The notes under the pieces are model-generated. The model ran no database searches and had not been told where the DNA came from. It saw only the letters and a list, made by a program, of their open reading frames with translations. DNA of 64,000 nucleotides, from IMG/VR virus record IMGVR_UViG_3300023184_000035, positions 84,134 through 148,133 of that record. One strand, given 5' to 3'. Both the position numbers and the translations under genes were made by a program. How positions within the stretch are numbered: the first letter of the stretch is position 1; the number at the start of each line of letters is the position of its first letter. This stretch comes from a virus. Positions 38,562 through 64,000 of this stretch are shown here, piece by piece.

Positions 38562-41500
38562 ATGTCAAAACACGTTATTATCGAAAGTTACGGATTAAAC
38601 CCAGCCACTAAAACGGTCACAGTCACCGGCAAAAACATCCGCAAAGAACAACTGCTGTTGATCACCAACGTAACTGCCAATGCCAGTTATCAAGGCACAG
38701 TGATCTACAATTTCTCAGATCCCAATCTTGGTGCCACATCATACACCACCAGTGTCAGTACCGACACTGGCCTAGAAACCACAACCGTTGTGTTGAGTTA
38801 CAACACAGCGTCAATGTTGAGCACAGACAAACTGGCCATCATGACCGAGGAAAGTTATCAGGAAATCATGCCGGATGAAACCCTGCGCGATCCCGTGGAC
38901 AAACTGCGTGTGAGCACACCACAGGCCTTGATTGACACTGACTTTGAATACGGTTTACAGCCCACCAAATGGGAACAGCTGAACCTGTTGAACAATCGTC
39001 CCACAGGGTTTTATGATGTTACCTCACCTGCCACAATTTCCAACGTGGCTGCGTCAGGCAACACTGTCACCGTCACAGGCAGCATTGCTACTTTTACCGC
39101 CACCATTGCCACCAACACCCTGACTGTGACTGCTTTGAGCTCAGGCCTAATAGGCAACGGCATGGTCATCACCGGTGCAGGTGTCACTGGCAACTCTGTA
39201 GTCACCGCTTTAACTGGCAATTCGTCAGGCGGCATTGGCACATACACCTTGAGTCAAAGCAGCACTGTAATCAGTCCAGTCACAATGACAGCTACACCGG
39301 CCACAGGCACACCGGTGTTTGTGCAAGGCACCCTTGACACCAACTACGCAGACGGTTGGTGGACTGTGCAGACCAGTTCGGGCACTGCATTCACCTATCA
39401 AACCTTGGTCAATCCTGCTGCTGCCTTGTATGATTCACAGAAAACTTATGTGTTCCCTGGTGCTTGGTTCACCGGTGCTGTGTATCCCATGGCTGCTGGC
39501 AACATTTCCAACGTGGGCAATGTGCTCACCATTACCACAACTTACAATCATGGTCTACGTGTGGGTGACGGCGTGGCCATTGCCAACGTCACTGCATCGG
39601 CCAATGCGCCCAACGGACCATTCACTGTGGTGGCAACTCCCACCACAAACACATTCACAGTGAACACAGCCAACACTCCTGGCACCAGCATCACTGCCAC
39701 AGCCAACAACAGCATTTTCCCAAGACCCCTGGGCTACACACAACAACGTGCGTTTGACGGTGGTGTGCAGTTCACAAACTTGGTGCCATATCATGGTTAT
39801 CAAGTGATTCGCCAAACTCGACGATACTTCCGTTATCAGTCTGGCAAAGGTATTCAGTTCTCAACAGGCAGTATTTTAAAACCTGCCTTGTCCCTGACCA
39901 CAATGACCAGTTCAGGCACCACTGTCACAGTATCTTGCCAACAACCACACGGCTTGTTGCCCGGAGCAGGTATCAAGGTTGTGGGTGCTGCACAGACCGC
40001 CTACAACGGCACAGGCACAGCAGGTGGCAGCACTTACACAGTGGTCACAGTGCCCACACCCAGTAGTTTCACATACACTGCTGACTCAACTCCTTCGGCC
40101 AGTCCAGCCACATCCTCATCAGCAGGCAACACAGGTATTATTGTGAGTCCCACGGCCTGGTATGGCAGCAGCAACAGACTGGGCATGTTTGACAGCCAAA
40201 ACGGTTTTTACTTTGAATTTGACGGACAAACCCTGTATGCTGTGAGACGCAGCAGTACCACTCAGTTGTCAGGCCTGGTCACTGCCACCAATGGTTCAGA
40301 TTCCATCACTGGCAGCAACACCAAATTCAGCACACAGCTCACTTCGGGTGATTTCGTTGTTATTCGTGGACAAAGTTACATTGTCAACGCCATCATTAGT
40401 GACACATCAATGACTATAAGTCCTGAGTATCGTGGTGCCACCACAGTGGCCAACAGCACTCAGATCAGCAAGACCATCAACACTAGAACTGCGCAGAGCA
40501 GTTTCAACATTGACAAAGTGGATGGCACAGGTGCCAGTTTGTTCAATCTGGACTTGACCAAGATGCAGATGTTCTACGCTGACTATTCTTGGTACGGTGC
40601 TGGTGCCATCAGATACGGATTTAAAAACAACCGCGGTGAAGTCATATACTGCCATCGCATGCCCAACAACAACTTGAACACCGAAGCATTCATGCGTTCA
40701 GGTAACTTGCCGTCGCGCTATGAGACCAATACCTTGCCAATATACACAGCGTTGACTGCTTCTGTGAGCAGTGCGCTGACCACAGGTGCCACAATCAGCG
40801 TGGCAGATGCCAGCACATTTCCCTTGGCTGGCAACATACGCATAGTTGAAAGCAAAGCCACAGGTGGCAATGTGGAAATCATCAACTATTCCACACGAAG
40901 CAACACTGTGTTGACTATTGGTTCAGCAGGCACAGCAGGACGTGCGGTGACTGGCGGCGCAACAACAGCACAGACATTCACTTATTCAGCCACATCACCC
41001 ACAGCGGTAGAATTGTACAGTCCGCAAACTGCCAGCACAATCAGTCACTGGGGATCATCAGTCATCATGGACGGACGCTACGACGATGACCGATCATTTG
41101 TGTTCTCGGTGGGTTCTTTGGCTCCTGTTGCCAACGTGGCACAGAACGTGCGACAGCCTATCATGAGTGTTAGATTGGCACCCAGTGTGGACAACGGCCT
41201 AACTGGTCTGATTGGTGTGCGTGAGATTTTGAATCGCATGCAGTTGACACCGCGTGGTATTGACTGTTACACTTCAGGCACTGCTTACCGCATTGACTTG
41301 TTGTTGAATGCTAGACTCAGCGGGGGCACCTGGACCAGCGTGGGCGGATCCAGCTTGGCACAGTACATATTCCACACTGCTGGACAAACAGCCGCAGCCG
41401 GTGAGGTTATCTACTCATTCTTTACCAACACAGGATCAGCCACCAGTCAAGACTTGGCCTTGGTGCGTGACATTGGCACCAGTATTTTGAGTGGTGGTAA

Positions 41501-41639
41501 TACCACCACTGCCAGCGTGACTCAGGCCAATTTGTATCCAGATGGACCGGACGTGCTGACTGTTTGCGCTACCAATATCACTGCAACTGGCACCAATACC
41601 ATCAACAGTCGTTTGAGTTGGACAGAAGCACAGGCATAA
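38562..41639 (+). CDS. Large virion structural protein
   Basis: DKLRVS.PQALIDTDFEYGLQ.TKWE, RQTRRYFRYQSGKG, DYSWYGAG motifs of large myophage virion proteins. Confidence 0.8.
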   Translation: MSKHVIIESYGLNPATKTVTVTGKNIRKEQLLLITNVTANASYQGTVIYNFSDPNLGATSYTTSVSTDTGLETTTVVLSYNTASMLSTDKLAIMTEESYQEIMPDETLRDPVDKLRVSTPQALIDTDFEYGLQPTKWEQLNLLNNRPTGFYDVTSPATISNVAASGNTVTVTGSIATFTATIATNTLTVTALSSGLIGNGMVITGAGVTGNSVVTALTGNSSGGIGTYTLSQSSTVISPVTMTATPATGTPVFVQGTLDTNYADGWWTVQTSSGTAFTYQTLVNPAAALYDSQKTYVFPGAWFTGAVYPMAAGNISNVGNVLTITTTYNHGLRVGDGVAIANVTASANAPNGPFTVVATPTTNTFTVNTANTPGTSITATANNSIFPRPLGYTQQRAFDGGVQFTNLVPYHGYQVIRQTRRYFRYQSGKGIQFSTGSILKPALSLTTMTSSGTTVTVSCQQPHGLLPGAGIKVVGAAQTAYNGTGTAGGSTYTVVTVPTPSSFTYTADSTPSASPATSSSAGNTGIIVSPTAWYGSSNRLGMFDSQNGFYFEFDGQTLYAVRRSSTTQLSGLVTATNGSDSITGSNTKFSTQLTSGDFVVIRGQSYIVNAIISDTSMTISPEYRGATTVANSTQISKTINTRTAQSSFNIDKVDGTGASLFNLDLTKMQMFYADYSWYGAGAIRYGFKNNRGEVIYCHRMPNNNLNTEAFMRSGNLPSRYETNTLPIYTALTASVSSALTTGATISVADASTFPLAGNIRIVESKATGGNVEIINYSTRSNTVLTIGSAGTAGRAVTGGATTAQTFTYSATSPTAVELYSPQTASTISHWGSSVIMDGRYDDDRSFVFSVGSLAPVANVAQNVRQPIMSVRLAPSVDNGLTGLIGVREILNRMQLTPRGIDCYTSGTAYRIDLLLNARLSGGTWTSVGGSSLAQYIFHTAGQTAAAGEVIYSFFTNTGSATSQDLALVRDIGTSILSGGNTTTASVTQANLYPDGPDVLTVCATNITATGTNTINSRLSWTEAQA

Positions 41640-47704: not shown

Positions 47705-48319
47705 ATGGAGCTAACATTACAACAACTAAAACAAATGGTGCCAGGCATACCCTATGCCGAACACTGGCTGGAAGCCCTGGATCAACTGCTGCCAGACTAC
47801 GAAATCAACACACCCGAACGCATTGCGGCTTTCATAGCACAGTGCGCACATGAGTCAGGTGGGTTTAAATTTATCAAAGAAAATTTAAATTACAAAGCCG
47901 CAAGTTTGCGCACAGTGTTTGGCAAATATTTCCCCACGGATGACTTGGCCAATGCCTATGCCAAAAAGCCTGAAATGATTGCCAACCGAGTGTATGCATC
48001 ACGCATGGGCAACGGTGACGAACACTCAGGTGATGGCTATCGCTATTGTGGTCGTGGACTTATCCAACTAACTGGCAAAAGCAACTATGAAAACTTTGCT
48101 GCCAGCTTGGAAATATCACCTGAAGAAGCAGCAGAATACCTGGCCACATTTGAAGGCGCCGCACAAAGCGCCTGCTGGTTCTGGGAAAGTAATAACTTGA
48201 ATGTGGAGGCTGACGCTGGCGACATCAAAAAGATGACCAAGAAGATCAATGGTGGTTATATTGGTTTAGAAGATCGTATTCATCACTATGAGAATGCATT
48301 AAAAATCATGGGAGCATAA
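47705..48319 (+). CDS. Endolysin, glycoside hydrolase family 19
   Basis: AAFIAQCAHESG, ENLNY, GRGLIQLTGK.NY, TKKINGG..GL.DR. Confidence 0.92.
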   Translation: MELTLQQLKQMVPGIPYAEHWLEALDQLLPDYEINTPERIAAFIAQCAHESGGFKFIKENLNYKAASLRTVFGKYFPTDDLANAYAKKPEMIANRVYASRMGNGDEHSGDGYRYCGRGLIQLTGKSNYENFAASLEISPEEAAEYLATFEGAAQSACWFWESNNLNVEADAGDIKKMTKKINGGYIGLEDRIHHYENALKIMGA

Positions 48320-53664: not shown

Positions 53665-54450
53665 ATGACCGACTACTACGCCGCACTAGGCGTGCCAAAA
53701 ACTGCCACTGCTGACGATATCAAACGAGCCTTTCGTAAGTTGGCCAGCCAACACCATCCAGACAAGGGCGGGGATACTGCCAAGTTCCAGGCCATACAAC
53801 AGGCCTATGCCACACTAGGTGATGAACAAAAACGTGTGGAATACGACAATCCTAGACCACAATTTTCAGGATTCCATGGACACCCGGGTGGGGTAAACAT
53901 CAATGACATCTTTGGACAAATGTTCGGGCAACAGTTTGCGCACCAACATCAACAGCCGCGTAGAAGTCATGTGCGCATGACACTTTGGATCACACTGTTG
54001 GATGTGGCCACTGGTGGCAAGCGTACTGTAAGCCTGGGCACACAAAGCGGTGTGAGTGCTGTAGAAATTGAAATACCCCTGGGCATCAACGACGGGGACA
54101 ATGTGCAGTATGAAGGCATTGGTCCTGGTGGGTCGGACCTGGTGGTTAATTTTAGGATTTCACCAGATCGAACATGGATTCGTGAGGGGCTCAATCTCAC
54201 CATGGAGGTCCGACTGAATATTTGGAGTCTAATCTTGGGTGGTGATCTCACCATTGACACATTGACTGGCAAGACCCTGACTGTGAGCGTGCCTGAGCGC
54301 ACACAACCTGGCACCAGTTTGCGATTGAAAGCACAAGGATTGCGAGATCGATCAGGCAACACAGGAGATATTTTTGTGCGAGTACAGGCCACAATTCCCG
54401 ATAACATTGCGCCCGAAATCTTGGATGTTATCCGAAATCACCAAGAATAA
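53665..54450 (+). CDS. DnaJ/CbpA-type chaperone
   Basis: J domain with HPD, short G/F region, C-terminal domain, no zinc finger. Confidence 0.92.
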
Positions 54451-54525
54451 ATATTTTGGCACAGCCCAGGTTGCACCAATACTGCAAACACCGTATAATA
54501 AACACAAGACAACTCAAGGACCCAC

Positions 54526-56781
54526 ATGCAAAACAATCCCGAAATTGAACACATTGTAGAACAAGCAGTTAAAATTGCTCGAGACAAACATCACGAATAT
54601 GTGATAACAGAACATTTGTTGCTGAGCCTGGTCAGGCATGCACCGTTTAGAAAAACTCTAGACCGTTTTGGTGCGGAAGTTGCACAGATGGAGCAAGAAG
54701 TTGACACATATCTTGACAGTTTGAAACACCTTGTCAAAGCTGATGCTGACTTGCAACCAAGAAAAACACAGACCCTAGAACGCCTGTTTAATCGTGCCAA
54801 TGTGCAGGTCATGTTCACCGGACGCAGAACACTCACAACACTGGATTTGTACCTGAGTATCATGGCCGAAACCAACAGTCATGCACACTACTTCTTGCTC
54901 AAATACGGTGTGAAGAAAACTGAATTCTCAGACTTCTTTACCAAGAATTACACAGCTGGTGAAGCGTCCAAGATGAACATAAATCAAGCCAATGATATCT
55001 TGAACGAGTATTGCACCAATCTTACTGAAATGGCCAAGGCTGATCAGTTGGAACCGCTAATTGGACGCCAAACCGAACTGCACGAAATGATCACAGTAAT
55101 GGCACGCCGCTTCAAGGCCAATGTGCTCATGGTGGGAGATCCAGGTGTGGGCAAGACCTGCATTGTGGACGGACTTGCCCAAGAAATCATTGCTGGTCGT
55201 GTGCCTAAATTCATACAAGATCACGAAGTATGGGGGCTGGAAGTTGGCAGTTTACTTGCAGGATCCAAGTACCGTGGCGAGTTTGAAGAAAAGTTCAAGG
55301 CTGTGATTGCTGCTCTGGAAACCAAAAAGAACTGTATCCTGTTCATTGACGAAGCACACACCATGAAAGGTGCTGGTGCAGGGTCACAAAGTAGCCTGGA
55401 CTTTGCCAACATGTTGAAACCCGCAATCACCAAAGGACATTTGAAAGTGATTGCGTCAACCACCTGGGAAGAGTACTACGAATCATTTGAAAAGGATCGC
55501 GCACTCATGCGCAGGTTCTATCGTATCAGTATTGACGAGCCAGATACAGAAACCACAGAGAGAATCCTTGCTGGTCTAAGCCCCAGACTGGAAAAGTTTC
55601 ATGATGTAGTAATTGATCGCGCAGCCATGTTGGCCGCTGTGGAACTGGCCAACCGTTATATTCATGATCGTAAAAATCCTGACAAAGCCATTGACTTGTT
55701 GGATGCGTCATGCGCACGTGAACGTGTGAAAGATCAAGGTACCGTCACCATCACCAAGGAACTGATCCAAGCACAGGTAAGTCGTGTGGCCGGGGTGCCA
55801 GTGGATCGACTGCAAAATGAACGCAGTGCAAAGATCATGGATTTGGATTCAAACATCAAACAGAAATTGTACGGGCAGGATTCAGCCGTGGATGCTGTGC
55901 TGGAACGGGTGTATATCAACTTTGCCGGTATTGGCAATGACAAACGACCCATCTCAAGTTTCTTGTTCCTGGGCCCAACTGGCACAGGTAAAACTGAACT
56001 GGCCAAACTGTTGAGCGAACACTTGGAAATGAAACTGTTGCGCTATGACATGAGTGAGTACCAAGAAAAACACACAGTGTCAAGTTTAATTGGTGCACCT
56101 CCGGGCTATGTGGGCTTTGAAGATGGCAATGTGGGCGGCGGCAAACTGATTTCGGACATCAGCAAGAATCCCTATGCTGTGATCTTGTTTGATGAAATTG
56201 AAAAAGCACACTCGGATGTGACCAACATCTTGTTGCAGATGCTGGACGAAGGACATATCACCAGTGCAAACGGCAAACGAGTGGACGTGAAAAACTGCAT
56301 CATCATCATGACAAGTAACTTGGGCGCACAAGCCAACGATGCCAACAACATTGGGTTTGGTAGTTTGGAGAAATCGGGTGAAGAAGATCGTGCCATGAAA
56401 GACTTCTTCCGTCCTGAACTGCGCAATCGTATTGATCGTATCTGCAAGTTCAACAAACTGGACACACTGGCCATCAAGAAGATTGTGGTGAAGTTTGTGG
56501 ATGAACTCAAAGCCAGTATGACACACAAGAACATTCGATTGGTGCTGACCGAACCGGTTATTGACCATCTAGCTGACAAGGGCTATGACAGCAAAATGGG
56601 CGCACGTCCGCTGAGTCGCAAGATTGATGAACTGATCCGTGTGCCATTGAGCAAGCGGATCTTGTTTGATCGACTGGAAAACTGTACAATCACTGCTGTG
56701 ATGACAGAGGACGCTGTGGAGTTCATGATCGAACAGGACACTGTGACCAGTGTGAACACAGAAGGAATTATCATTGTATAA
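54526..56781 (+). CDS. clpA: ClpA-like AAA+ chaperone
   Basis: Clp N domain (HEY…EHLLL), two Walker A (GDPGVGKT, GPTGTGKT), no M-domain, IGF loop, GARPL. Confidence 0.9.
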   Translation: MQNNPEIEHIVEQAVKIARDKHHEYVITEHLLLSLVRHAPFRKTLDRFGAEVAQMEQEVDTYLDSLKHLVKADADLQPRKTQTLERLFNRANVQVMFTGRRTLTTLDLYLSIMAETNSHAHYFLLKYGVKKTEFSDFFTKNYTAGEASKMNINQANDILNEYCTNLTEMAKADQLEPLIGRQTELHEMITVMARRFKANVLMVGDPGVGKTCIVDGLAQEIIAGRVPKFIQDHEVWGLEVGSLLAGSKYRGEFEEKFKAVIAALETKKNCILFIDEAHTMKGAGAGSQSSLDFANMLKPAITKGHLKVIASTTWEEYYESFEKDRALMRRFYRISIDEPDTETTERILAGLSPRLEKFHDVVIDRAAMLAAVELANRYIHDRKNPDKAIDLLDASCARERVKDQGTVTITKELIQAQVSRVAGVPVDRLQNERSAKIMDLDSNIKQKLYGQDSAVDAVLERVYINFAGIGNDKRPISSFLFLGPTGTGKTELAKLLSEHLEMKLLRYDMSEYQEKHTVSSLIGAPPGYVGFEDGNVGGGKLISDISKNPYAVILFDEIEKAHSDVTNILLQMLDEGHITSANGKRVDVKNCIIIMTSNLGAQANDANNIGFGSLEKSGEEDRAMKDFFRPELRNRIDRICKFNKLDTLAIKKIVVKFVDELKASMTHKNIRLVLTEPVIDHLADKGYDSKMGARPLSRKIDELIRVPLSKRILFDRLENCTITAVMTEDAVEFMIEQDTVTSVNTEGIIIV

Positions 56782-58435: not shown

Positions 58436-59938
58436 ATGACAACTGTAGTAATCATGCCCGGGGGTTTTCACCCTTTTCACCCAGGACACTTGGCGCTGTA
58501 TCAATCAGCACAACGTGCCTTTCCTGATGCCGAAGTTTACGTGGCCGCTACCAATGACAAGAGTGACAGGCCTTTTGATATCTCAGACAAACAAAAAATT
58601 GCCTATGCCGCAGGAGTTGAACCTGGACATTTTGTTCAAGTCAAGTCGCCATTTCGTGCAGAAGAAATTGCCAGTCAGTACAATCCCAATCAGGATGTTT
58701 TGATTTTTGTGCGCAGTGACAAAGACGCCAACACACAACCTCAGGCAGGTGGAGTTAAAAAAGACGGGTCTGCCAGTTATCTGCAACCGTTGTTGGGTGC
58801 CCGACGATTGGAACCATTCAGCAAGCATGCCTACATGGCGTATTTGCCCACTGTGGAATTTGGTCCTACTGACATGACTTCTGCCACACAGATACGAGCG
58901 GCATGGCCCACGCTCACACCCAAACGTAGACTGGCCCTGGTCATGAGCTTGTATCCCAACACACAACAAGATCCAGCAGGCGCACAGGATATTGTACGCA
59001 TATTTGATCAAACCATTGGCGGGATTGATGAAGACATCAGTCGTAGAGGATTCCTACGAGGCATGGGTGCAGCAGCTGGCTTGGCCGCAGCCGGCACAGT
59101 TGGTGCACAGGAAACTTCCAAACCTAATTTTATAGCCATTGTCAAAATTGGCGATGATGTTCGACAACTTGATCTTGGAAACAAATTTAACAGTTCCCAA
59201 GAAGCCTTGGAATTTGTTGGTAACATCTTGTCCAAAAAAGGACTGCAAGGTTACACTGTGAACATTGCTCGTGGTCAACCCAAGACAAATGAGAACCAAG
59301 GCTGGGCAGCAACATTGGAATCAGACGGCATCACCACAGGAACTGGTGTCACAGGCGGCATGCATGCTGGATATCAAGATCGTTATAACCAGCCCATTGA
59401 TGAACGTGACCTTGGTTCTAAGTTGGGTAGCAAGCGTGACCAGGGCAAAAGTGTTCGCAAGTGGCGCAAAGAGCGTGGGCTTGATGAGCAAGACTACTTG
59501 GACGAAGCTCGCACTGACCCCATCCAAGCTGCCACTGTGGACTTTTATCAAAATCAAGTTGGTGATGTTGATAAAAAGCCTGTGGACAACTATCGAGAAA
59601 TTGCTAGAAAATTACTGGGGCAAACAGAAAATCCTGGCATGCGTAAGAAAATCATGGATATTCTTGTGCAAGGAAATAAAAATCCCTACATCCAAGGCGG
59701 CATCATAACCACAGTGGCTGCCATAGTAAGTGGTGGGATTTTGAGCAGTGCCAATCGAATGGGCCTTACCCCACAACAAACCAACATGATGTTGCAGGCC
59801 ATATTAAACACAGTGGTTCCCACTGTGGTGTCTAGACTCAACGGCAAGAGTTGGGCTGATACTGCCAAATACACCCTGGCCTCAGCAGGCATAGGCACAG
59901 GCATTGCTGCCATGACCGAAACAGGTCGCAAAAAATAA
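58436..59938 (+). CDS. Modular protein: HIGH-family cytidylyltransferase-like domain plus appended modules (internal Tat-like signal)
   Basis: PGGFHPFHPGH, SATQIR; after IDE at aa 199 SRRGFLRG + hydrophobic stretch. Confidence 0.8.
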   Translation: MTTVVIMPGGFHPFHPGHLALYQSAQRAFPDAEVYVAATNDKSDRPFDISDKQKIAYAAGVEPGHFVQVKSPFRAEEIASQYNPNQDVLIFVRSDKDANTQPQAGGVKKDGSASYLQPLLGARRLEPFSKHAYMAYLPTVEFGPTDMTSATQIRAAWPTLTPKRRLALVMSLYPNTQQDPAGAQDIVRIFDQTIGGIDEDISRRGFLRGMGAAAGLAAAGTVGAQETSKPNFIAIVKIGDDVRQLDLGNKFNSSQEALEFVGNILSKKGLQGYTVNIARGQPKTNENQGWAATLESDGITTGTGVTGGMHAGYQDRYNQPIDERDLGSKLGSKRDQGKSVRKWRKERGLDEQDYLDEARTDPIQAATVDFYQNQVGDVDKKPVDNYREIARKLLGQTENPGMRKKIMDILVQGNKNPYIQGGIITTVAAIVSGGILSSANRMGLTPQQTNMMLQAILNTVVPTVVSRLNGKSWADTAKYTLASAGIGTGIAAMTETGRKK

Positions 59939-59990: not shown

Positions 59991-60935
59991 ATGTCAGACC
60001 AAGCACCGGTGACTACTACGCCACCAACCGATCCTGTAACAACCAATCAGCAAAACATTCAAGTAAACATTGATTATTTGCGCACCACACGAGTGCATAT
60101 TTGCATGCCTTGTTATGGAGGGCAACTCACTGAGCAATGCTTCATGAGCTACATCAAATGGGCCAACTTGTGCCGTCAACTCAACATTGACTGGACAGTA
60201 GAAACCATGACCAATGAGAGCTTGATCAGTCGAGCACGTAACACGCTCACAGCCAAGTTCCTGCACACCAAAGAATCCACACACTTGATGTTTATTGACG
60301 CTGACATTGGCTGGGAACCCTGGCATTTGTTGGTGATGTTGGATGCACAAAAAGACGTCATTGGCGGATTGTACCCCATGAAATCACTGCCGGTAAAATG
60401 GTGTGTGAACGGTATCCCAGGCCTGCCCGAAGATCCCAACAGTAATCTTGTGGAAGTCACAAAGACTGGCACAGGTTTCTTGTTGATCAAACGTGACGTG
60501 TTTGACAAGTTAACTGCACACCCTGCTACCAAGCCGTTCAACAACGACATTGGCTTGCCTGAAGAACTGAACCCTCACATGAAAACCTACTTTGACACTG
60601 CTGTGCGTGAGAACCGCTACTACAGTGAAGACTGGACTTTCTGTGAAAACTGGCGCGACATTGGTGGCCAAGTGTGGGTGGACAAACGTGTGCTGTTGCG
60701 TCACGTGGGCACATACACATTTGACTATGCCACACACGAACAACTGTACAAGGACCTCAAACAGATGTTTGAACCTGGTGCTGTTACTGTAACTCCAGTG
60801 TCACCAACTCAAGCATTGCCCAACAACAAAGTCACTGAAGGGCATGACTTGGCCAAAGCACCGGCTCCTGTGCCCGAGCCTGTGGTAATGGCTTCAAGCA
60901 AGAAGAAAGCCAAGAAAGCCGCTGCCGCAGCCTAA
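59991..60935 (+). CDS. GT-A fold glycosyltransferase-like protein
   Basis: ESLISRARN, FIDADI (DxD), GTGFLLIKR, SEDW.FC. Confidence 0.8.
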   Translation: MSDQAPVTTTPPTDPVTTNQQNIQVNIDYLRTTRVHICMPCYGGQLTEQCFMSYIKWANLCRQLNIDWTVETMTNESLISRARNTLTAKFLHTKESTHLMFIDADIGWEPWHLLVMLDAQKDVIGGLYPMKSLPVKWCVNGIPGLPEDPNSNLVEVTKTGTGFLLIKRDVFDKLTAHPATKPFNNDIGLPEELNPHMKTYFDTAVRENRYYSEDWTFCENWRDIGGQVWVDKRVLLRHVGTYTFDYATHEQLYKDLKQMFEPGAVTVTPVSPTQALPNNKVTEGHDLAKAPAPVPEPVVMASSKKKAKKAAAAA

Positions 60936-60950
60936 CGGTAAATACAACTT

Positions 60951-63512
60951 ATGAACATTCATGAGTTGTCTACCTATAATCTTGCCGACGCAGTAAAGTT
61001 TCACCGCCGTCTCAATCCCAGAATCTGGGGGCGAGACGAGCATTTGCTTCCTGAAGTGCGTGAAAAATTACTCACCATTGCTGAGGACTTTCAAGAATTC
61101 TTGGGCGTTGACGATCTCAATGTTCAAGACATCACCATATCAGGCAGCAACGCAGCCTACTCCTATACAAAAAATTCTGACATTGACCTACACCTTGTGG
61201 TCGAGATGCCTGACGATCCTGTGTATCAGGAGCTGTTCACGGCAAAAAAATACCAATACAACTCTGAGCACAACATACGGATTGGTGGGGCCGAAGTAGA
61301 ACTGTATGTTCAGCCTGCAGATCAAGCGCACCACAGTCAAGGCATTTACTCGGTAAAAGACGGCGAGTGGATTCAAGTGCCGCAACGCAAACGTGCGCAG
61401 ATAGACGATACCTGTGTGCGTGACAAAACAGCAGATTTAGATTCAAGAATTCATGCTGCTGTCAAAAGTAAAAACATTGATGCCATCAGCACACTGTGGA
61501 CCAAGATTAAAACCATGCGTCAAGCAGGACTTGAACAACATGGTGAGTTTGGTTGTGAAAATATCTCTTTCAAATTGTTGCGCAACCAGGGTTGCATCCG
61601 ACTGCTTAAAGATGCGATGACTGCTGAAAAAGATCGCGGACTCAGTTTGCGTGAAACTCCTGCAAAACCATTCCGTTATGGATACGGTGCAGAAGTTGAC
61701 GAAGCCAGTCTAGCAGACATGCGATCAGCATTTGCTGCCACTGATGCCACACGCAAGCAAGAAGTGTTTCACAGTCCAGACGAATACAACAAGGTCATGA
61801 AGCAACGACAGGCCGCTGCTGATGAGCGTCAAGAAAAAATTGTAAAGATATCACGAGGCCCAGTAAAACCCTGGCCCATGGGTGTAAAAGAAGGCATGCA
61901 AAGTCAGCCTTACAGCACCAGTGATGGTGTTGCTGCCAGCACCAAACAGTTTTTAGAAGATGCAGAGTCTGATGACCAAACTCTTGTGCATGACTTTATT
62001 CAACACACTGCCATGGAACTGGGCATAGATCCCTTGCCTGAAATTCAGTTGCACACCGACCCTGAATGGAGCACACACAATCACAGTTTTGGTCGTTATG
62101 ACCCTGACACACATACGTTGAATGTCAGCATGCCCAATCGCCACATCCTGGATGTGTTGCGCACAGTGGCACATGAATTGGTGCATTGCAGTCAAAATCA
62201 ACAGCATGGTCACTTGCCTGATGATGCAGGTGAAACTGGCAGTGACTGGGAAAATGATGCCAATGCCCGAGCTGGTATCATCATGCGTGACTGGGCCAAC
62301 ACCCATCCCGAACATTTTGAATTGCCGGCTCTGCGCGAGAGTGTGAGTGATTACCAAATACACGATACTGAAAAATTGGATCGTGTGCTGGCCAAATGCT
62401 GTCAAATGATTGAACGTGGACAACAAACGGATCCTGAACGTTATGGGCAGGTGGCTGCGTGTATAATTGATCCTGATCACAACTATGTGTATGGCATCAA
62501 CTTGCCTGGCGCTGATGGCCGACGCCGACATGCTGAACGTGTGGCCATAGACCGATATCGTAAAACACATGGTGATGTTCCTGAAGGCAGTATTGTGGTC
62601 ACCACACTGAGTCCTTGCAATGCACCCATGGATGAACGTGCAGGGAAGAGTTGCAAAGACCTGTTGAATTCAGTGGGCATACACAAAGTGTATTGTGGAT
62701 ACATTGACCCTACTCAGCATGACGATGCCGACGCTGACTTCACTGTGGGGCTCACACAAAATGATGAGTTATGGGAAGCATGCAAAGCATTTGCTGACAC
62801 ATTCCTGCATGAAGATGAGCTAGAAGAAGGTTGGCGCAGTGCATTGGCCGGAGCCGCTGCCGCAGGTGCCATGGCATTTACACCAGCACCAGCCAACTCC
62901 ACAGCCGCACCTGCATTAAATCCCGCAGCACAACCCGCTGCCGTTCAACAAGTACAACAGACTGGGCCACAAGCTGCATTGACCAAAGCCGCACAGGCAG
63001 CAGGCATCAAAGGTACAGAACTGGCGCAGTTCATGGCACAATGTGAACATGAGAGTGGTAACTTTGCACACCTGGAAGAACTGGGCGGTAAAAATTATCT
63101 TGCCAAGTACGATCTCACAGTGAATCCTGCCAAGGCCAAGGCCCTGGGCAACACTCAAGCCGGAGACGGTGCCAAATACAAAGGACGTGGGTTTATACAG
63201 ATCACAGGCAAAGCCAACTATGCCAGTGCTGGACAGGCCCTGGGCATAGACCTAGTGAGCAATCCTGAGCTGGCTGCCAAACCTGACGTGGCTGCCAAAG
63301 TTGCTGTGTGGTACTGGCAGAATCGTGTGAAACCGTATGTGCAAGACTTTAGTGACACACGTGGGGTTACCAAACGCATCAATCCTGGCTTGCAAGGCTT
63401 GCAAGACCGAGTGGACAACTTCAAAGATTATCAACAACAAACAGCCACTGTGGCTGCACCACCAGCTAGAGTGGCAGCCGCACCACAGGCTCAACCAGGA
63501 CCAGCAGCATGA
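60951..63512 (+). CDS. Multidomain protein: Pol-beta-type nucleotidyltransferase + zincin + Zn-deaminase + GH19 lysozyme
   Basis: GSNA.Y.Y…SDIDLH…ELYVQ; AHELVH…END; HAE…SPC…C; AQCEHESG…GRGFIQITG..NY…TKRIN. Confidence 0.85.
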   Translation: MNIHELSTYNLADAVKFHRRLNPRIWGRDEHLLPEVREKLLTIAEDFQEFLGVDDLNVQDITISGSNAAYSYTKNSDIDLHLVVEMPDDPVYQELFTAKKYQYNSEHNIRIGGAEVELYVQPADQAHHSQGIYSVKDGEWIQVPQRKRAQIDDTCVRDKTADLDSRIHAAVKSKNIDAISTLWTKIKTMRQAGLEQHGEFGCENISFKLLRNQGCIRLLKDAMTAEKDRGLSLRETPAKPFRYGYGAEVDEASLADMRSAFAATDATRKQEVFHSPDEYNKVMKQRQAAADERQEKIVKISRGPVKPWPMGVKEGMQSQPYSTSDGVAASTKQFLEDAESDDQTLVHDFIQHTAMELGIDPLPEIQLHTDPEWSTHNHSFGRYDPDTHTLNVSMPNRHILDVLRTVAHELVHCSQNQQHGHLPDDAGETGSDWENDANARAGIIMRDWANTHPEHFELPALRESVSDYQIHDTEKLDRVLAKCCQMIERGQQTDPERYGQVAACIIDPDHNYVYGINLPGADGRRRHAERVAIDRYRKTHGDVPEGSIVVTTLSPCNAPMDERAGKSCKDLLNSVGIHKVYCGYIDPTQHDDADADFTVGLTQNDELWEACKAFADTFLHEDELEEGWRSALAGAAAAGAMAFTPAPANSTAAPALNPAAQPAAVQQVQQTGPQAALTKAAQAAGIKGTELAQFMAQCEHESGNFAHLEELGGKNYLAKYDLTVNPAKAKALGNTQAGDGAKYKGRGFIQITGKANYASAGQALGIDLVSNPELAAKPDVAAKVAVWYWQNRVKPYVQDFSDTRGVTKRINPGLQGLQDRVDNFKDYQQQTATVAAPPARVAAAPQAQPGPAA

Positions 63513-64000
63513 GAGCACATGAATTTTTACGTGAAGATGTTGAGAATTTTCCCATTGCCAATGTACGTAGACCCAATGGTGCCATTGGCAACCAAGGTGT
63601 GAACACGGAGCAAGCAGCCGATGTGTTGACTCATGCTGCCGGCATGCAGGTATCGCCAGACTGGACCATGCGACAGTTAGTGGATGCGCTACGGGCTGAT
63701 CCTGCGGCACAACAACGTCTGCGACAATTTGTGCAAAAAAATCCCATCACAGTGTCTGCCCTACCAGATGGTTCATATCATTTGCTGGATGGCCATCACA
63801 GAACATTTTTGCTGAACCTGCTGGGCGATGAAACAGTGCCTGCTATTGTTAAAGAAGGTGTGGCGGAAGGCTTGACAGAAGCAGCCATGTCTAACGCTGT
63901 AACATTTTTTAGAGGTGAGCCAATACTTTCACAAGAAAGATTAAATCAATTAAAATCAAGCATAGGCAAACCTTACCCTATACTAAGGAAAGAAGGATCA
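63509..64000 (+). CDS. Partial modular protein with ParB/Srx-like domain (3' truncated)
   Basis: MRAHEFLRE N-terminus; PITV…LLDGHHR…VPAIV; then KEGVAEGLTE linker; frame open to window end. Confidence 0.75.
   Translation, partial: MRAHEFLREDVENFPIANVRRPNGAIGNQGVNTEQAADVLTHAAGMQVSPDWTMRQLVDALRADPAAQQRLRQFVQKNPITVSALPDGSYHLLDGHHRTFLLNLLGDETVPAIVKEGVAEGLTEAAMSNAVTFFRGEPILSQERLNQLKSSIGKPYPILRKEGS

Follow-up and report, generated by a model that had tools for sequence, protein, structure and literature searches.

What becomes of a single viral polypeptide that combines a nucleotidyltransferase (NTase), a metallopeptidase, a deaminase and a muramidase? This question is raised by an open reading frame (ORF) at positions 60951..63512 (plus strand) of a 64,000-nucleotide stretch of the IMG/VR virus record IMGVR_UViG_3300023184_000035 (positions 84,134 to 148,133 of that record), the whole of which is referred to here as the window. 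The ORF is an uninterrupted frame of 853 codons, and its product, designated P0001, contains an NTase-metallopeptidase core common to more than 100 homologs. The window represents the last 64 kb of a 148-kb contig estimated to be 42% complete, from which a phage genome of roughly 350 kb is expected. With moderate confidence, we interpret P0001 as a capsid-cargo polyprotein of this T4-like jumbo phage, the joints of which would be cut by a gp21-type prohead protease (Peptidase S77). On the basis of sequence comparisons, P0001 probably enters the capsid, is cleaved into its component enzymes and is delivered into the host along with the DNA. An earlier note on this DNA had likewise read the ORF as a packaged and processed polyprotein, a reading that is supported here by comparison.

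Pfam, PHROG and Foldseek searches identified the domains and motifs of an NTase, an HExxH metallopeptidase (zincin), a zinc deaminase and a GH19 hydrolase in this one ORF, as the earlier note had described, and all residue numbers given there are correct, including those of LRE235, VDE251, VKE314, FLE336, LRE463 and LEE626. Two AlphaFold2 models, of the whole protein and of residues 1-468, agree in their folded blocks, and P0001 is predicted to join five to six modules, each folding independently, via disordered linkers. The blocks comprise the NTase (~20-232), a helical hairpin (251-300), the zincin (340-457; predicted local distance difference test score (pLDDT) 85-94), the deaminase (~480-620), over which model confidence is low, and GH19 (672-833).

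The first module (residues 1-235; 60951..61655; all modules are on the plus strand) encodes a Pol-beta superfamily NTase with a helical domain, shows an ANT/AadA- and CD-NTase-like fold and ends with an invariant S232-L233-x-E235. Residues 8-233 match PHROG 36119, a family that T4-like cyanophages, Maribacter phages and Lak megaphages encode as stand-alone proteins of ~240 residues; stand-alone phage NTase homologs stop at approximately residue 233-243. The NTase motif G65-S66...D77-I-D79 is present, with GS...DxD invariant in 86 relatives, and Foldseek matched the block to AadA, AAD(9) and CdnE at E ~2e-4 and also to MNT. The Pfam NTP_transf_2 match at residues 56-101 is weak (15.2 bits) and falls below the cut-off of 21, so that the assignment is made at the level of the Pol-beta superfamily only. 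The NTase is followed by a disordered spacer (residues 236-251, TPAKPFRYGYGAEVDE; 61656..61703; pLDDT<50 at 233-250), in which FRYG is conserved, and by an optional helical-hairpin insert (residues 252-314; 61704..61892) with VDE/ and VKE/ at its edges (a slash marks a proposed cut). This insert, with helices at 251-262 and 276-300 in the AlphaFold2 model, is present in approximately one third of relatives; alignment occupancy falls at 246 and returns at 314, and BLAST alignments break at 245 and 281.

Residues 315-463 (61893..62339) contain a GMQSQPY lead-in and a minimal gluzincin metallopeptidase with H408-E-x-x-H412 and E434, and end in ALRE463/. H408, E409, H412 and E434 are invariant in the 86 relatives. 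No Pfam family scored above its cut-off over this module, and Foldseek matched it to jannalysin (4jix), abylysin (4jiu) and selecase (4qhi) with probabilities of 0.99-1.0 and TM-scores of 0.49-0.58; phmmer searches of the PDB with the NTase or the zincin module as query returned nothing usable. Because their catalytic residues are invariant in relatives, both modules appear to be catalytically competent. The RibD/CDA-like zinc deaminase (residues 464-626; 62340..62828) carries the motifs H527-A-E and P555-C556...C568, matches Pfam dCMP_cyt_deam_1 (PF00383) at residues 476-583 (42.4 bits; cut-off 25), aligns best with the RibD deaminase domain (PDB 2hxv) and ends in the double site LHE621/DELEE626/. 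The last module (residues 627-853; 62829..63509) consists of a Sec-signal-like hydrophobic segment (GWRSALAGAAAAGAMAFTPAPA), a Pro/Ala/Gln linker and a GH19 muramidase (residues 672-833). The latter matches Pfam GH19 (PF00182) at residues 685-792 (52.9 bits; cut-off 25.5) and, by Foldseek, the phage endolysins 7r6s, 9ms7 and 4ok7 at E 5e-9 to 9e-8, and contains the signature residues E699-H-E701, E709/E710, KGRG744 and WYW787.

The evidence that carries the polyprotein reading comes from a family set of more than 100 cluster representatives, which share residues 1-468 at 41-88% identity and differ downstream. While this core is common, the downstream modules are exchanged at 461-468 and 621, and BLAST alignments with P0001 break in nearly every relative at 245/281, 461-468 and 621. 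Typical junction contexts are PLEE/GASGYIP, TVNLRE/S, EEDIDE/SAGDY, VQE/NFADG and DELEE/GWRSAL. All-vs-all BLAST yielded 442 unique interior breakpoint contexts, which are not phylogenetically independent, and 53% of them lie no more than 6 residues from an [LIVM]xE motif, compared with 17.6% of random interior positions. The distribution of alignment ends has a sharp peak 0 to +2 residues relative to the Glu (109/249). Neither [LIVM]xD/K/Q/R nor [SAG]xE, used as control motifs, reaches a similar excess, with [LIVM]xK weakly above its own background.

Twelve module types were distinguished on the basis of their initial residues (anchor-based counting; single-linkage clustering of the pieces lumped most of them together). 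Position P1 is Glu at 329 of 335 module starts, 11 of the types have L, I, V or M at P3 in nearly all cases, with F before GMQSQPY, and P2 is free even in front of one and the same module, as the deaminase is preceded by LRE, IDE, VQE, LAE, MTE or VNE. The deaminase start SxxDY follows [LIVM]xE in 21/21 cases and the GH19 start GW[RK]xAL in 27/27. Since the 12 module types have many different upstream partners, a chance or purely historical origin of the motif is unlikely. Altogether, 120 proteins display approximately 45 module orders, and the cargo encoded in relatives includes Amidoligase_2, LysM+GH19, NUDIX+GNAT, Pol-beta NTase+GNAT and DUF6934+GNAT+deaminase.

The commonest module of the family is a 58-residue SGYIP module (SGYIPKNKKEA..SVDIKPG..GEPGLLMKTVNLRE; e.g. 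L003:11372-11548), which follows the zincin in ~90% of members and also forms the C-terminal end of the NTase proteins in G006 and G007, two distant relatives with the NTase and zincin as separate genes. Pfam contains no match for SGYIP or for the C-terminal NFADG module, and the Atlas none for SGYIP, which possibly serves as a packaging or targeting element.

Within P0001, segments with pLDDT<50 in the two models span residues 233-250, 301-322, 329-339, 458-480 and 592-671, which places all six proposed Glu residues within, or at the margin of, a predicted linker. The 15 [ILV]xE motifs compare with 9.1 expected from composition, an excess that is not significant. Comparative support is direct for 235, 251/314, 463 and 621/626. 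Stand-alone NTases stop at the E235 border, and in G007 the NTase is followed by LSLPE/SMVE/ and the SGYIP module. The sharpest breakpoints are those at E463 and E621/E626, with 111 BLAST ends at residues 464-468. Conservation of L233, E235, E314, L461 and E463 is complete or almost complete, whereas the surrounding linkers are variable. The earlier note had placed module borders at six Glu motifs, expecting them to fall between folded domains and modules to be gained or lost there. The predicted linkers agree with that parsing, and modules in homologs are indeed swapped exactly after [LIVM]xE; FLE336, by contrast, lies inside the zincin module.

The same modules are also encoded as separate genes behind a short leader. 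The ORF directly downstream (63509..64000, plus strand) overlaps the P0001 stop codon (ATGA), runs past the end of the window and contig, and is a second polyprotein gene. It encodes the leader MRAHEFLRE/ (continuing with DVENFPIANVRR), a ParB-like nuclease module and the triple joint IVKE/GVAE/GLTE/, beyond which a further module is cut by the contig end. The ParB-like module contains LLDGHHR (Pfam ParBc_2, E 0.0026), is found fused inside the polyproteins P0047, P0108 and P0114 directly after ...TVNLRE/, and is 92% identical to residues 452-566 of P0114. Nine ORFs begin with MRA[QRHT]EF[LIV]xE, in most cases with the Met codon directly behind a stop codon; those at other loci start with MRAQEFVAE, MRAREFITE or MRATEFLIE. 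In total, the leader is carried by the adjacent ORF and 12 other genes in relatives, and the leader DNA pattern has 13 matches in 5 records, all on the coding strand, compared with 0 for the reversed control. Four of the nine leader ORFs, including the neighbour of P0001, match internal polyprotein segments at 55-92% identity from the residue after the leader Glu onwards, their modules being a Pol-beta NTase, DUF6934+GNAT, NFADG and the ParB-like nuclease. The leader MRAxEF[LIV]xE resembles the capsid-targeting sequence (CTS) of T4, MKTYQEFIAE (PMC8442874), in which positions 8 and 10 govern processing (PMC9026906). That modules occur either behind a leader or behind a polyprotein joint would be expected of head cargo in which leader and joint alike serve as gp21-type cut sites.

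In T4, gp21 cleaves its substrates behind the Glu of L/I-x-E motifs (PMC9026906), and the clade that contains P0001 encodes the corresponding head genes. A related record, G002, harbours a core 84% identical to that of P0001 together with a Gp23-type capsid gene at the contig start (PF07068, E 2e-97). Peptidase_S77 (gp21) scored above the Pfam cut-off in 5/5 larger records holding the gp23 locus, and tblastn placed the protease next to gp23 in 76 loci, just upstream of it in all 60 loci among the matches listed. The head gene order, with protease, scaffold and gp23, is as in T4. The clade gp23 has four [LIVM]xE motifs in its first 42 residues (LLE/S, LLE/G, ILE/N and LKE/N) and one in the other 356, and the scaffold has 26 in 366 residues, including QLRE/SA and ILRE/SV, the same words as the ALRE/SV joint at 463 of P0001. 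The presumed natural substrates of the protease, the gp23 propeptide and the scaffold, therefore carry both the joint motif and the same P1' residues. In the records L095 and L013, the head module consists of an acidic ORF, the S77 protease, the 366-residue scaffold and gp23. Their protease begins with MALYLKE/HLTFDRASMVVE/S, and for this reason may process its own N-terminal end, which is also suspected of T4 gp21.

A T4-type head protease is proposed as the processing enzyme because the clade encodes S77, scaffold and gp23, because the joint motif is shared with the gp23 propeptide and scaffold, and because modules also occur behind a leader. In the proposed sequence of events, P0001 would be built into the prohead scaffolding core and the head protease would cleave it after E235, E251, E314, E463 and E621/E626. 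The released enzymes would remain in the filled head and be ejected together with the DNA, whereupon NTase, deaminase and peptidase could act on host molecules and the GH19 piece, with a Sec-type signal as its new N-terminus, could reach the cell wall. The NTase and the deaminase may have an anti-defence or host-takeover role, as the earlier note had suggested.

Several observations weigh against this interpretation. P0001 lacks a T4-type CTS, as its N-terminus MNIHE/LSTYNL does not follow MRAxEF[LIV]xE (MNIHE/L shows a conservation of 90% or more and is disordered in the model), and both P0001 and P0006 lack the SGYIP module. Considered alone, P0001 shows no clear preference of [ILV]xE for linkers (7/15 motifs fall in low-pLDDT segments, which make up 29% of the residues; P = 0.11), and FLE336 was rejected as a border, the FLED word lying inside an N-terminal extension of the zincin module and occurring also in stand-alone zincins. 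The gene neighbours are DnaJ and ClpB-like genes in conserved synteny, with no head genes beside P0001, and the stand-alone NTase homologs of cyanophage S-CRM01 are located among replication genes. The head-protease family PF03420 was not found on the 42%-complete contig of P0001 nor on five related core-bearing fragments, an absence that is uninformative because the records searched are 36-65% complete. Likewise, neither S77 nor gp23 is present on the 148-kb contig or on 4/5 related core-bearing fragments, and the fused core and the protease occur together in no record searched; the link between protease and polyprotein runs through G002 and near-identical gp23 loci.

Processing could alternatively be intrinsic, with the zincin of P0001, instead of the head protease, acting on the [LIVM]xE joints either in cis or in trans, be it in the cytoplasm before packaging, in the head or after delivery. 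Such a role has been proposed for metallopeptidase domains, with phage P1 DdrB as an example, in PMC5512222. It would agree with the conserved position of the zincin in the core of all members, its four invariant residues and confident minigluzincin fold, and with the missing capsid-targeting leader of P0001. However, the joint motif corresponds to the established specificity of gp21-type serine proteases and recurs in the gp23 propeptide and scaffold, which are not substrates of the zincin, and leader-bearing genes with one or several modules have identical joints without a fused zincin. Moreover, zincins usually prefer a hydrophobic P1' residue, which contrasts with the S, G, N, Y, F or D found at the joints. 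The small stand-alone zincins of G006 and G007 begin with MKIRE/ITE/S and for that reason look like cargo themselves. Self-processing is consequently regarded as unlikely.

Quite unlikely, too, is a chain that stays uncut. P0001 would then be one tethered polypeptide, with residues 628-642 as an internal signal-anchor that places GH19 in the periplasm and leaves the other enzymes in the cytoplasm; it could function as a late lysis or cell-wall accessory, and its Glu-ending linkers would be recombination-friendly sequence without a protease role. The internal Ala/Gly-rich hydrophobic segment does precede peptidoglycan-hydrolase modules only, the gene lies outside the head cluster, and some polyvalent proteins, such as N4 vRNAP and ArdC, are delivered uncut (PMC5512222). 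Recombination convenience, however, leaves unexplained why Glu is strict at P1, P3 hydrophobic and P2 free across 12 module types, why an invariant L-x-E lies inside variable linkers, and why the same modules follow a T4-CTS-like leader ending in the same motif. In addition, the phage encodes a separate 204-residue GH19 protein (47705-48319; 39% identity to the GH19 module of P0001), which is more likely the true endolysin.

It is very improbable that another phage or host protease cuts the joints, for instance with the ClpB/ClpA-like AAA+ protein encoded 4 kb upstream in conserved synteny (phrog_4871, annotated 'ATP-dependent protease'), and that the products have late functions in the producing cell without ever being packaged. 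To our knowledge, Clp-type unfoldases do not act as sequence-specific endoproteases, the analysis revealed no other Glu-specific protease, and the T4-CTS-like character of the leader suggests the head as destination.

The capsid-cargo interpretation can be extended to a broader view, which we regard as tentative and rather doubtful: T4-like jumbo phages might possess an 'express, package, process' system for dozens of interchangeable cargos, single behind a leader or chained, which the head protease both separates and re-addresses. Cleavage after E626 would uncover a hidden Sec-type signal (GWRSALAGAAAAGAMAFTPAPA/N) and so allow the ejected GH19 to leave the host cytoplasm for the cell wall; in the neighbouring 500-residue protein, a Tat-type signal would become exposed after IDE/. 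If this applies, the compartment targeting of injected phage proteins depends on capsid maturation. Residues 627-650 (62829-62900), directly after LEE626/, show the n-h-c layout of a Sec signal peptide (GWRSALAGAAAAGAMAFTPAPA/NS). An equivalent segment follows the joint in the peptidoglycan-hydrolase modules of relatives (LRE/YRNALATAALAGTMAMGAQA/K) and is absent from other module types. The 500-residue protein (58436-59938) consists of a cytidylyltransferase-like N-terminal domain, GGIDE/, the Tat-signal-like SRRGFLRGMGAAAGLAAAG, followed by PIDE/, LDE/ and LDE/, and C-terminal hydrophobic segments, and may represent another cargo that is cut and re-addressed.

P0001 combines at least two disparate activities (NTase, zincin, deaminase and GH19) in one phage polypeptide and is, by content and setting, a polyvalent protein in the descriptive sense of Iyer et al. 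(2017; PMC5512222). In that paper, polyvalent proteins likewise unite unrelated enzymes, including Pol-beta NTases, zincin-like metallopeptidases and lysozyme-type wall hydrolases, and share GNAT, NUDIX and ParB-like domains with the relatives of P0001. Their delivery with the DNA and their processing, mainly by the fused metallopeptidase, are predictions made there; for the P0001 family, such delivery is indicated only indirectly, by the CTS-like leaders of sibling modules. No junction motif is defined in the portion of the text examined, whereas the joints described here carry the T4 head-protease motif, and the modules of the P0001 family, unlike the polyvalent proteins covered there, alternate between fused and leader-bearing stand-alone forms. 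Neither the pairing of deaminase and GH19 nor a T4-like jumbo-phage setting was found in the PMC5512222 text.

The other close parallel is provided by IPI, IPII, IPIII and Alt of T4 (PMC9026906, PMC8442874, PMC12373910), with which the P0001 clade has in common the S77/scaffold/gp23 head genes, the L/I-x-E motif and a diverse, rapidly exchanged putative cargo. Alt is an enzyme that is cut at both ends, with an N-terminal propeptide of only 7 residues (PMC9026906). In contrast to the T4 internal proteins, which are single small proteins with their own leader and one cut each, P0001 chains several large enzymes with a presumed cut site per joint and has no canonical leader. In phiKZ-like giant phages (201phi2-1, phiKZ gp175, SPN3US gp245; PMC9026906, PMC5694885), many proteins are packed into the head and cut after Glu in a three-residue motif, often at redundant sites; that motif is S/A/G-x-E and not [LIVM]-x-E, and the substrates are mostly a propeptide plus one mature part and not a chain of unrelated enzymes. 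Processing of the phiKZ type was rejected for P0001, as [SAG]xE is not enriched at the joints. RNA virus polyproteins follow the same logic of one product cut at short conserved sites, but without homology; here, the setting is a double-stranded DNA tailed phage, with a presumed capsid maturation protease inside the prohead and accessory cargo as products. Within the literature library searched, no paper dealt with enzyme chains with gp21-type joints in T4-like phages.

If the capsid-cargo interpretation is correct, the T4 internal-protein system extends beyond a few small coliphage restriction inhibitors to a general modular enzyme-delivery platform in uncultured jumbo phages, comprising NTases, deaminases, peptidases, amidoligases, NUDIX, GNAT, ParB-like nucleases and wall hydrolases. 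A sequence rule, the leader MRAxEF[LIV]xE or [LIVM]xE followed by a module, could then predict injected proteins and their mature ends in metagenomic phages, and the polyvalent protein idea would gain a concrete and testable processing mechanism. The cargo list would serve as an inventory of enzymes that are candidates for early host takeover and counter-defence.

Beyond the family set, tblastn searches of phages and plasmids returned single-module matches only, with the fused form in no cultured phage or plasmid, and a DNA search of phage records with the P0001 ORF gave no match. The T4 late-promoter word TATAAATA occurs three times in the window compared with 1.1 expected, and because it is not enriched no inference on expression timing is made. 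A virion protein encoded at 38562-41639 of the window aligns over more than 85% of its length, at ~40% identity, with structural proteins of T4-like cyanophages. Upstream of P0001, positions 53665-56781 contain a DnaJ-like gene (J domain and DnaJ_C) and a gene for a ClpB/ClpA-like double-AAA+ protein of 751 residues, which occur in the same order in L119, a 354-kb relative. Next to the NTase gene, on its upstream side, a 314-residue protein (59991-60935; phrog_1574) is encoded in a conserved position, which is retained even in the distant G006 and G007.

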